64,000 bases of DNA. Origin: Escherichia coli (GTDB taxonomy: Bacteria > Pseudomonadota > Gammaproteobacteria > Enterobacterales > Enterobacteriaceae). The notes beneath the pieces are model-generated. The model did no database searches. It worked only from the letters and a program-made list of their open reading frames with translations, and was not told the DNA's origin. The translations under genes were made by a program, and so were the position numbers. The stretch lies in the NCBI RefSeq assembly GCF_003334815.1, contig NZ_QOWO01000022.1, one strand, 5' to 3'. Every line of letters starts with the position of its first letter. The first letter of the stretch is position 1. This document shows, one piece after another, positions 16,475 to 19,437 of the stretch.

Positions 16475-17098
16475 ATGCAGGAACGTATTGATTATCATAT
16501 TGAGAAATATCAGTTCAGGGCCAGGAATGAGTCTCCACGACTGATGCGTCAGTGGGCTGATGTCATGCGTGAATGCCGGGAGACCGGGGCAGGTGCCAGG
16601 GAGCGACTGCGGACAGCATTACTGAATGTTGATTATGTGACCAGTTTTGAGCTGCCGTTTCGTCTGCTGTTAACCCGGACACCGCAGATGATTGACACTC
16701 TGCGTCGGGAATGGTTGCTCAGTCAGAAAAAAGCCCTGTTCAACGGGCGGCAGCGGGGATGTGTATACAGTCTGCAGAATGACTTATCCGGCGTGCCGGA
16801 TTGTTTCAGCTACAGTCTTGCGACGCGAATACGGCGGATGGACTGCTATGGCATGACGACGCGTTGTTTTACTGATATCGCCGGGCAGGTTAAAGTCCCG
16901 ACGGCACGGCTGAAACTGGCGCTGGAAAGCGGGTTGCTGGTAACGGCACTGGATGGCCTGTTCTGGCTGGGAACTCAGCGAATTGCCGCTGATGTGCAGA
17001 GACTGCGTCAGTCAGGTATGGTGATAGTCACCCGGGAAGTTGAGGTATCAGACTCCCTGACCGGAACCACCAGACTGGTTTCTGCCTACACACTTTAA
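16475..17098 (+). CDS. Hypothetical protein (207 aa), possible regulator
   Basis: GC-rich ORF unlike its AT-rich neighbours, basic and helical; function not recognisable. Confidence 0.4.
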   Translation: MQERIDYHIEKYQFRARNESPRLMRQWADVMRECRETGAGARERLRTALLNVDYVTSFELPFRLLLTRTPQMIDTLRREWLLSQKKALFNGRQRGCVYSLQNDLSGVPDCFSYSLATRIRRMDCYGMTTRCFTDIAGQVKVPTARLKLALESGLLVTALDGLFWLGTQRIAADVQRLRQSGMVIVTREVEVSDSLTGTTRLVSAYTL

Positions 17099-17185
17099 AG
17101 CACAGGAGGAATCTTTGTTACCGTATTCGCACTGATTCTGAAATTTACCATTGTTTACCGGGACAGATTACAGACAGGATATTTT

Positions 17186-17641
17186 ATGCGAGATAAATCA
17201 GAAGTATTAACCGGAGCGCAGAAAAACAGATTTGGTCTGATTCTTTATATTATACTATTATCAGTTGTTTATATATTGATAACAAGACTTAATCTCACAA
17301 CTACATATTATTCGCTGTATTCATCTCTGGGTGAGAATTCACAGGTGACGGAGTATTTTATAATCTCCATTGCTACCTTTCTTTTTCTGTCAGGGTTATG
17401 TTTGCTATTCATTTATTCTTTCTTTAAACGAAAAAGAGTGGTAGGAAAATTACTTCTGGCTATTCATCTCCTTTATATATCGCACTATGCTATCACTTTT
17501 GTTTATTGTCTTTATGTTGTCGGTGCTGAGTGTATGACAACCGGAAAGATTGAGTATATTTTGATTGATATTATTATAGCCATGCTTTCTCTTTCGTATG
17601 TTTGCCTTTCCGGGAGGGCAAGACATATTTTTGTTAACTAA
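17186..17641 (+). CDS. Hypothetical small integral membrane protein (151 aa, about 4 TM)
   Basis: AT-rich ORF with four hydrophobic segments; directly upstream of the phosphoethanolamine transferase gene. Confidence 0.4.
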   Translation: MRDKSEVLTGAQKNRFGLILYIILLSVVYILITRLNLTTTYYSLYSSLGENSQVTEYFIISIATFLFLSGLCLLFIYSFFKRKRVVGKLLLAIHLLYISHYAITFVYCLYVVGAECMTTGKIEYILIDIIIAMLSLSYVCLSGRARHIFVN

Positions 17642-17819
17642 ATGTATTCTGAGTGTTTTATGGTTATGAGGCCTTCATCGGGTTATGCGAATAATCTGGT
17701 TCGGGGAGCAGTTGCTGTAAACACAGAACCTGATAATATGTCAATCTTGCTGGACAGAACAGGATGTTTTTGTGAGCTGTTTCATATAAATATCCATGCG
17801 TTGAAATGATTGTCTGTGT

Positions 17820-19376
17820 TTGTACAGGAAAATGACTGGCGTGTCTTGTATTAAAGAAAAATCAAAATATGCTTTTGAGAGAGCAAAACAGTTTTATTTT
17901 ATGTTGTGGTGCAAAGAGTCACTGATTTATCTGTTGTTTTCTGTGCTTGTTACATGGTGCTGCGGATATACAGTGAAAAACACCCTGGGGAATGTGCTTA
18001 TATTGTTCCTGATGTTGTTGTTGGGGCGGCAGAATGTTATTTCAGCAACGTGTGTCTGTATCTTTCTTTTGTTAAGTGCATGCTATGCTCCGGTTGGGAT
18101 GATTTACGGGAAAATAAACAACAGTTTTATTGCGTCTGTAATGCAGACAAATATAAATGAGGCAGGTGAGTTTATCACAGGCATACCTGTTCTTTATTTT
18201 ATTGTTTCGCTGGTCATTGCTGCTTTTACATTCTGGTTCTGGCGTAAGCGTGATAAAAGCCACCGGGGATTTATCTTTCTGTTGTTCTTTATCGTATTGT
18301 CAGTAAATGCATGGCCAAAACGTATGGTTACGAATGTAATGACGGGGATAGCTGAAACCAGAGAAGAAATGATGCGATATGAATCGCTGAAAAACAATCA
18401 GAAAGACTCATGGGATATTGTGAGTGTGGAGAAGAAATATAAAACCATAATTATCGTAATTGGTGAAAGTGTCAGACGGGATTATCTTTCTGTTTATGGC
18501 TATCCTTTGCCGACAACACCATGGCTGAATTCTGCTCCGGGTATATTTATTAATGGGTATTTCTCAGCAGCGCCGAATACGATAGGTTCACTCAGCAGAA
18601 CACTGACGCTTGATTACACTGAAACAGGGAATCCGGGTAATAATATTGTTACGCTTGCCAGAAAAGCCGGGTATGAGACGTGGTGGATATCAAATCAGGG
18701 CTCTTTAGGGCAACATGATACGCTGATTTCTGTCATCGCCGCCAATGCGGATAAAAAACATTTTCTTAAGGAAGGGAGCTCTTCTTCCCTTCGCATTGAT
18801 GATGAGGATATGCTTCAGTATGTCAGGGAAGCTGTTAACTCGTCTTCTCCAAAAGTGATTTTTATTCATATGCTGGGGTCTCACACTAATCCCTGTGACC
18901 GACTTTTTAATGATGCACAGCCATTCAGGGAATTATTCGGAAATAAAGTATCCTGTTATTTATCAACATTGCTTAAGCTGGATCGGTTTCTTCAGGCAAT
19001 TTATAACATGACGACAGAGCATGGTGATGATTTTGCCATGCTGTATTTTTCTGATCATGGGCAATCCGTCAGTTCAGACAGCACCCCTGTGCATCATGCG
19101 CCAGGTTTGCGTTCGGGATACGATGTACCTCTCATGATGATGGCCAGTGATATTACTGAGCACCACCTCAATCATGTGCATATCAGTGCACGTCGTTTTC
19201 CCGAGATTTTTCAATGGATCACAGGGATACAAACCAAAAATCTGCCGTTAAGTTTTTCTTTGTTACAGAATGATTTCGCTGAAAGTGTTTCTGTATTCAA
19301 TGGTGAACGTGACGTTCCGGTAATGTCTTTGCCAGAAGAGCCGATACTGACCGGAAATGCTGAATCAGAAAAATAA
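17820..19376 (+). CDS. Phosphoethanolamine transferase (sulfatase/alkaline-phosphatase superfamily, EptA/OpgE/MCR-like)
   Basis: N-terminal transmembrane domain followed by a catalytic domain with IIIVIGESVRRDYLSVYGY, FIHMLGSHTNPCD and YFSDHGQS. These parallel the VVGETAR / HQMGNHGP / YVSDHGES motifs of EptA/MCR enzymes. Substrate unknown. Confidence 0.75.
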   Translation: MYRKMTGVSCIKEKSKYAFERAKQFYFMLWCKESLIYLLFSVLVTWCCGYTVKNTLGNVLILFLMLLLGRQNVISATCVCIFLLLSACYAPVGMIYGKINNSFIASVMQTNINEAGEFITGIPVLYFIVSLVIAAFTFWFWRKRDKSHRGFIFLLFFIVLSVNAWPKRMVTNVMTGIAETREEMMRYESLKNNQKDSWDIVSVEKKYKTIIIVIGESVRRDYLSVYGYPLPTTPWLNSAPGIFINGYFSAAPNTIGSLSRTLTLDYTETGNPGNNIVTLARKAGYETWWISNQGSLGQHDTLISVIAANADKKHFLKEGSSSSLRIDDEDMLQYVREAVNSSSPKVIFIHMLGSHTNPCDRLFNDAQPFRELFGNKVSCYLSTLLKLDRFLQAIYNMTTEHGDDFAMLYFSDHGQSVSSDSTPVHHAPGLRSGYDVPLMMMASDITEHHLNHVHISARRFPEIFQWITGIQTKNLPLSFSLLQNDFAESVSVFNGERDVPVMSLPEEPILTGNAESEK

Positions 19377-19399
19377 TAAAGATTATTTATGACCGTGCT

Positions 19400-19437
19400 C
19401 AATGCCTCATGTGTATGAGGCATTGAACGTTTATTTC
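19400..19437 (+). terminator. Rho-independent terminator after the phosphoethanolamine transferase gene
   Basis: caatgcctcat gtgt atgaggcattg hairpin followed by a T-rich tract. Confidence 0.55.

Follow-up and report, generated by a model that had tools for sequence, protein, structure and literature searches.

The window analysed here is a 64,000-nucleotide stretch of Escherichia coli DNA (contig NZ_QOWO01000022.1, assembly GCF_003334815.1), and the element in question is a cassette of two genes, one for a phosphoethanolamine (PEtN) transferase and one for a small membrane protein, carried on an IncI-complex conjugative backbone. The list of open reading frames (ORFs) gives three plus-strand frames at this place, located at 16475–17098 (207 aa), 17186–17641 (151 aa) and 17820–19376 (518 aa, with a TTG start). 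The RefSeq start of the third frame is the GTG at 17841, which results in a protein of 511 aa (WP_001317519), and an in-frame ATG at 17832 is an alternative start (514 aa). On the basis of homology, catalytic residues and an AlphaFold2 (AF2) model, the gene at 17841–19376 is assigned to an OpgE/YjgX-like PEtN transferase of 511, 514 or 518 aa depending on the start. The 151-aa frame, the first gene of the cassette, encodes a small inner-membrane protein of the DUF2569 family as judged from Pfam, a helix scan and GC content. The 207-aa frame encodes an ECs1377-family protein with a C-terminal winged helix and is a backbone neighbour outside the cassette. Comparison with plasmids that lack the cassette places its approximate extent at 17097–19470.

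An intrinsic-terminator-like hairpin with a 12-bp stem and a 4-nt loop is present on the plus strand at 19399–19436, 23 nt past the stop codon of the transferase gene. The hairpin stem occupies positions 19399–19426 and is followed by the T-rich tail, ACGTTTATTT. A second terminator-like hairpin (17601–17622), together with a gap of 178–200 nt, sets the DUF2569 gene apart from the transferase gene. This gap is spanned by a 55-aa plus-strand ORF (17642–17809), which has no RefSeq annotation and part of which corresponds to orf92 on pO26-CRL125; it is probably non-coding.

An earlier note, made from the letters of the window alone, had described the three frames as one transferase module that differs in composition from its conjugative backbone, includes a small protein with four transmembrane (TM) helices and ends in a clean terminator. 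The three ORFs and the terminator are all present, the backbone is indeed conjugative (trbABC, excA and traY–traU, typed as MOBP and MPF_I), and the three genes are adjacent and co-oriented. However, they do not form one module, and the distinct composition applies to two of them only. GC content of the 207-aa gene is 53.8% (57% at third codon positions, GC3), which matches the backbone (51% for the window, 54% for trbC and 52% for traY). The DUF2569 gene has a GC content of 33.3% (GC3 30%) and the transferase gene 40.9% (GC3 40%), so that only these two are compositionally foreign to a backbone of 51–56% GC.

Distribution of the genes separates them in the same manner. Some part of the region is matched by 496 plasmids in a megablast search, and in 362 of these the best match is just 80–90% identical; the sampled rows of the 362 plasmids contain the 207-aa gene alone, at about 89% nucleotide identity, and lack the transferase. 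In plasmid pTMSA970, nuc and the 207-aa gene are present while both cassette genes are missing, homology ending at window position 17096 and restarting at 19471. Plasmid pXDL-2 has kept the DUF2569 gene and lacks window positions 17776–19692, which include the transferase gene. In a divergent allele of the same slot (L017), gene order is unchanged (nuc, 207-aa gene, DUF2569 gene, transferase gene), but amino acid identity to the window copies is 91% for the 207-aa protein, 54% for the DUF2569 protein and 72% for the transferase. These differences in composition, distribution and identity from the 207-aa gene indicate that the DUF2569–transferase pair has its own history inside the backbone slot. 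The cargo is thus an AT-rich cassette of two genes, while the 207-aa gene belongs to the backbone. The 207-aa protein scores 293.6 bits against the NCBIfam model NF052300 (ECs1377 family, cut-off 190) and has a weak C-terminal winged-helix match (Pfam HTH_39), and the backbone distribution of this helix-turn-helix (HTH) gene argues against a dedicated regulator of the cassette. Transposon or insertion sequence (IS) boundaries were searched for in the cassette flanks, and this search revealed just short imperfect repeats at chance level and no transposon-like terminal repeats.

The transferase shows the architecture of the PEtN transferase superfamily, with an N-terminal multi-helix membrane domain followed by a periplasmic domain of the sulfatase fold, in both the sequence and the predicted structure. 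Pfam matches are Sulfatase (1.4e-37, residues 208–467) and EptA_B_N (3e-6, residues 60–158), hydrophobic helices are located at residues 34–136, and the closest solved relatives in the PDB by sequence are EcEptC (1e-22), NmEptA and MCR-1, as expected from the superfamily assignment of the earlier note. The AF2 model, built on a 42-sequence alignment, has a pLDDT of 89.9 and a pTM of 0.85, and comprises helices between residues 4 and 185 and then an alpha/beta domain. Foldseek matches this model to EcEptC (TMt 0.74) and to full-length MCR-1 and EptA over about 540 columns.

The earlier note had also named a missing threonine nucleophile or missing metal ligands as grounds for giving up the assignment. 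We aligned 17 sequences, including the five K-12 paralogues EptA, EptB, EptC, OpgE and YhbX and ten homologues, and found the nucleophile and all of the metal ligands retained (numbering of the 518-aa form). Residues E216, T254, H355, D412 and H413 are invariant in 17 of 17 sequences, and H426 is retained except in EptC (E) and EptA (Y), where the mismatch is probably a local misalignment. T254, E216, D412, H413, H355 and H426 align with T280, E240, D452, H453, H383 and H465 of NmEptA, respectively. Between alleles that are 72% identical, dN/dS of the transferase gene is 0.17–0.24, which indicates purifying selection. Taken together, the intact catalytic residues, the confidently predicted structure and the purifying selection suggest that the gene very probably encodes an active enzyme. 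Judged by its sequence, the plasmid transferase is an intact, uncharacterised addition to the known PEtN transferase superfamily.

Comparison with the five K-12 paralogues, taken from NC_000913.3, places the transferase closest by far to OpgE (226 bits), followed by EptC (108), YhbX (92), EptA (58) and EptB (50). Identity to OpgE is 30.4% over 490 aa (E 4.6e-71), and OpgE itself reaches 219 bits with the transferase and no more than 122 bits with any of the other four K-12 paralogues. A remark of the earlier note, that a transferase of this size could be OpgE-like and modify another periplasmic substrate, is therefore the one which the evidence favours. NCBIfam models for CptA match far below their cut-offs, at 108.4 bits (cut-off 404) and 100.6 bits (cut-off 900), and the match to the EptB model is also far below its cut-off. 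In a neighbour-joining tree, which has no bootstrap support and is indicative only, the plasmid alleles (P0001–P0003) are sister to a group of about 50% identity (P0006–P0018), all of them inside an OpgE-like superclade from which EptC, EptB and EptA are excluded. Within this superclade, the transferase groups with YjgX-like genes and apart from the branch that contains K-12 OpgE, Photorhabdus proteins and Pragia, and is hence not in the clade of OpgE orthologues. Homology to the plasmid-borne Lpt-O was considered and rejected, as the pSFxv_2 protein gives no BLASTP match at E<1e-3.

The sister group consists of YjgX-like transferases, parts of which are found in 3,011 of 5,426 complete E. coli genomes. 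A remnant of this family is the K-12 pseudogene yjgX (b4575) of the leuX island, located at NC_000913.3 4499593–4500791 (L065 5594–6792, and also in L064), which is 92.5% identical in nucleotide sequence to an intact island gene. The tRNA-associated islands of E. coli strains that produce Shiga toxin (STEC) carry putative transferases named 'YjgX or YhbX' with no assigned function (PMC6174562). Pairing of the sister transferase with a preceding gene for a Tia/PagC-like outer-membrane protein was seen in four loci only (L004, 7113–9500; L005, 1–2049; L018, 7054–9503; and L021). The two genes of this pair diverge in parallel, the outer-membrane proteins being 54–66% and the transferases about 50% identical. 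In K-12, ompX and opgE are also neighbours, but convergent (L013, 3451–5598). The gene Z4322 of OI-122 is suspected, from gene adjacency, to encode a further YjgX-like transferase. Module 1 of OI-122 holds pagC and Z4322 (PMC5852577).

More distant OpgE-like transferases are located on small plasmids, where they are among very few annotated genes. One is present on the Raoultella plasmid pWP3-W18-ESBL-06_8 (L015; 8.4 kb, ColRNAI, mobilisable) and another on a 6.2-kb plasmid of Enterobacter roggenkampii (H79). The small-plasmid transferase is 31–33% identical to both the window transferase and OpgE. pSFxv_2 with lpt-O shows a comparable arrangement, but its enzyme is not related to theirs.

The 151-aa protein matches Pfam DUF2569 at 3.8e-07, and a Kyte–Doolittle scan reveals four hydrophobic helices in it, in line with the small four-TM protein of the earlier note. 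Between alleles, dN/dS of its gene is 0.21–0.27, again a value of purifying selection. The gene is paired with the transferase gene in both divergent plasmid alleles (the window and L017) and persists alone where the transferase gene is deleted. The DUF2569 subfamily is small, amounting to 10 clusters among 1.84 billion representative proteins. None of the distant DUF2569-like genes that we inspected adjoins a transferase gene, and none of the inspected distant transferase loci contains a DUF2569 gene. A functional link between the two proteins of the cassette is possible. One of the distant DUF2569-like genes (34% identity; L062, 67–2817) is located on a small plasmid contig together with a replicase gene, a gene with a pore-forming colicin domain and a TraG-like gene, where no link to a transferase was seen.

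At least 80% of the region 17100–19450 is present in 112 of 5,426 complete E. coli genomes (about 2%), and 179 of 180 matching places are on plasmids. About 110 PLSDB plasmids encode a copy of the transferase at 90% or higher amino acid identity. Typing of four such plasmids gave the replicons IncK2/Z (in two), IncFIB together with IncI-gamma/K1, and IncC, with MPF_I genes in all four. The 3.2-kb region matches many E. coli plasmids, for example pH2332-107, at 100% identity, and NC_022992 and NC_022996 at 99.8%. We equate these two accessions with pO111-CRL115 and pO26-CRL125, respectively, since their lengths (115,452 and 124,908 bp) agree with the plasmid names and with the ORF coordinates in Table S1 of PMC3817090. 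Carriers include relatives of both pO113 and pO26-CRL125.

Outside E. coli, a scan of contigs from species-representative genomes revealed no close relative of the transferase apart from short contaminant contigs, while relatives of 25–39% identity are found in Gilliamella, Snodgrassella, Capnocytophaga, Helicobacteraceae and Comamonas. The short contigs are those of Acinetobacter idrijaensis (JQCU01000189.1, L019, 514 bp) and Terrisporobacter mayombei (L022, 430 bp), with fragments 97–100% identical to the transferase, and of a 'Bacteroidetes' metagenome-assembled genome (L021, 2.5 kb), with a fragment 56% identical; all three most likely represent enterobacterial contamination of those assemblies. 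In phages, no relative of the transferase closer than 24% identity was found. None of the three genes matches a PADLOC defence model, and no paper mentioning WP_001317519 was found in a literature search.

OpgE, the best characterised relative, takes PEtN from phosphatidylethanolamine and puts it on osmoregulated periplasmic glucans (OPG); it consists of four TM segments and a periplasmic domain, and its mutant has no known phenotype (PMC3818809). Overexpression of OpgE did not raise the minimal inhibitory concentration of colistin (PMC8004244, data not shown there). Two OpgE homologues of Haemophilus ducreyi, PtdA and PtdB, leave lipid A unmodified and affect surface charge (PMC4406763); since H. 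ducreyi lacks OPG, the OpgE-like branch is evidently not confined to OPG.

On balance, and with moderate confidence, we consider the locus to be an IncI-complex plasmid cassette in which a PEtN transferase of the OpgE/YjgX branch accompanies a DUF2569 protein and would act on a glycan of the periplasm or envelope that is not lipid A. The two genes would have been acquired in a recombination-prone slot of IncI-complex E. coli plasmids, between nuc with the HTH gene on one side and pnd with excA on the other. The transferase would be an inner-membrane enzyme whose membrane domain takes phosphatidylethanolamine. T254 of the periplasmic domain, activated by a zinc site of E216, D412 and H413 with the assistance of H355 and H426, would then form phospho-Thr-ethanolamine and release diacylglycerol, after which PEtN might be passed to a hydroxyl of a periplasmic or envelope glycan. 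Candidate acceptors would be OPG (as for OpgE), the core of lipopolysaccharide (LPS), the O-antigen and enterobacterial common antigen (ECA).

Several observations weigh against this reading. E. coli hosts already have opgE, and a second OPG enzyme would seem redundant. An identity of 30% to OpgE means that acceptor specificity is not transferable from one protein to the other, and the literature contains no experimental characterisation of the transferase or of its YjgX-like relatives. The annotation of pO26-CRL125 gives the transferase gene as 'hypothetical protein, 99% pO113' (PMC3817090 Table S1). EptC of Campylobacter jejuni acts on multiple substrates (PMC10525099), so that an activity on lipid A is possible on sequence grounds. 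The link between DUF2569 and the transferase is weak, because the distant DUF2569-like genes do not adjoin transferase genes. Insertions of IS5, IS1 and IS3 or deletions have hit the transferase region in several plasmids, and about 33 genomes keep the DUF2569 gene with less than 80% of the cassette; in six such rows listed, only the first 676–870 bases are kept. Frequent loss or disruption of the gene suggests that any benefit from it is conditional.

The earlier note had put first a modification of lipid A or LPS core that can change polymyxin susceptibility. The corresponding rival reading is a mobile lipid A PEtN transferase, similar in function to MCR or EptA, which would lower polymyxin susceptibility when expressed. 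Superfamily and catalytic residue set are indeed shared, the gene is plasmid-borne on a conjugative backbone, and some database entries bear the name 'lipid A phosphoethanolamine transferase'. However, few paralogues are more distant from it than EptA and MCR, and EptA is far behind OpgE in score. NCBIfam models for MCR-1 to MCR-8 score 16–29 bits on the transferase against cut-offs of 1100–1250, EptA models 49–75 bits against 561–660, and a generic lipid A transferase domain model 79 bits against 500. One PLSDB region table of resistance predictions lists the neighbour epeA and not the transferase. The gene has been present on the well-studied plasmids pO113 and pO26-CRL125 since at least 2003, and no colistin phenotype is mentioned in the papers that describe them (PMC2681110, PMC3817090, PMC6780720), which is absence of evidence only; our literature search likewise found no polymyxin or lipid A phenotype for the transferase. 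The lipid A reading is therefore considered highly improbable, and on sequence grounds MCR-type colistin resistance would not be expected from the cassette. That the gene is a decaying hitch-hiker with no current function is suggested by the IS insertions and deletions just described and by the pseudogene state of the sister gene yjgX in K-12, but is very unlikely given a frame that is intact in 112 complete genomes, the low dN/dS across 72%-identical alleles and the retention of all catalytic residues.

The remaining alternatives concern the acceptor. A second OPG-specific transferase, that is, a functional OpgE isozyme which alters the charge of periplasmic glucans, is unlikely, although OpgE, the best characterised relative, aligns along the whole length with the membrane domain included, and in both proteins membrane helices take up about 165 aa before the periplasmic domain (PMC3818809). 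Identity is only 30%, the clade is separate from that of OpgE orthologues and the activity would be redundant with that of chromosomal opgE. Since an opgE mutant is without known phenotype (PMC3818809), purifying selection would also be hard to explain for such an isozyme. Another possibility, of which we are equally doubtful, is surface remodelling akin to serotype conversion, in which PEtN would be added to LPS core, O-antigen or ECA of the plasmid host; recognition by phages, by the immune system or by PilV would thereby change, and excA would be complemented. PilV adhesins of IncI thin pili bind LPS. The cassette is flanked by the trb genes and excA, the small mobilisable Raoultella and Enterobacter plasmids have an OpgE-like gene as their only cargo, and sister genes adjoin genes for Tia/PagC-like outer-membrane proteins on tRNA-associated islands. 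A precedent is the plasmid-borne Lpt-O, which decorates O-antigen with PEtN (PMC3458804), and OpgE homologues hit targets other than OPG in H. ducreyi (PMC4406763). Against these points stand their purely contextual nature, the absence of sequence similarity to Lpt-O, the absence of copies in the phages searched and the absence of PADLOC defence matches. The specific idea that the DUF2569–transferase pair forms an envelope-decoration system of the plasmid, acting on a surface glycan as a glycan-level partner to excA, is one that we regard as quite improbable.

Gene order around the cassette is trbC, trbB, trbA, a SPATE autotransporter gene, nuc, the three ORFs, a small ORF, pnd (Hok/Gef), a gene for a protein with a TnsA N-terminal domain (TnsA-N) and sigma-70 region 4, excA and traY–traU. 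The slot of the cassette, between nuc with the 207-aa HTH gene and pnd/excA, is variable. A block of small ORFs at 10286–11053 is about 72% identical to a block located across the nuc and HTH genes in pTMSA970 and L007. Its presence on the opposite side of these genes elsewhere suggests that the trbA–excA slot has been shuffled by recombination. The SPATE (S6 peptidase) autotransporter is encoded on the minus strand at 11357–15520, within an inserted block of about 9860–15852 which is missing from pTMSA970 and pXDL-2. The N-terminal half of its passenger is only 56% identical to EpeA, and EpeA itself is found at the same position in closely related plasmids. It agrees in position and in ORF length with the 'novel SPATE' of pO26-CRL125, for which 4,089 bp are reported. 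Between pnd and excA, the minus-strand gene at 20334–21920 encodes a protein of 528 aa with a sigma-70 region-4-like HTH and a TnsA-endonuclease N-terminal domain; it is missing from pTMSA970, pXDL-2 and pSTM32-108, and has a weak PADLOC match to SspB (E 5e-4).

About 2% of complete E. coli genomes thus have the transferase gene on a transmissible plasmid, and STEC virulence plasmids of the pO113 and pO26-CRL125 types are among its carriers. The label of lipid A phosphoethanolamine transferase in some databases invites over-calling as a colistin-resistance gene. The evidence presented here argues against this label and in favour of an uncharacterised OpgE/YjgX-like subfamily, chromosomal relatives of which are present, at least partially, in over half of E. 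coli genomes and always on mobile islands. Identification of the acceptor would give a function to the whole YjgX-like subfamily, and might uncover a change of the envelope, driven by the plasmid, that bears on host colonisation, on sensitivity to phages or on mating. Should OPG prove to be the acceptor, the result would be a routine one; if envelope decoration is the true reading, it would be the first function assigned to the widespread YjgX-like family.

Among known systems, the lipid A transferases EptA and MCR-1 resemble the plasmid transferase in superfamily, fold and catalytic residues, and MCR genes are plasmid-borne too. However, identity is about 22% and mostly in the catalytic domain, and scores are far under the family cut-offs. 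EptC/CptA, which modifies heptose I of the LPS core, is the top match of the catalytic domain in both the PDB and NCBIfam, but is only 23% identical, remains at 108 bits against a cut-off of 404 and is outside the OpgE-like clade. Lpt-O (Opt) of Shigella flexneri pSFxv_2 is similar as a plasmid-borne PEtN transferase that alters a surface glycan (PMC3458804), yet it shows no BLASTP similarity and its RefSeq name is LTA synthase family protein. OpgE (YbiP) is the best characterised homologue, of the same size and with a membrane domain of about 165 aa of helices and a periplasmic sulfatase domain, whereas its clade is a separate one and its gene belongs to the chromosomal core, in single copy. 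The YjgX-like island transferases of E. coli and Salmonella are the nearest relatives (48–52% amino acid identity over about 92% of the length, in a sister clade) and are likewise horizontally mobile cargo with no characterised function (PMC6174562). Unlike the plasmid transferase, they are encoded in the chromosome, on tRNA-associated islands at pheV and leuX in E. coli and on an island in Salmonella, and their genes usually follow one for a Tia/PagC-like outer-membrane protein, where the plasmid transferase has the DUF2569 gene upstream instead.

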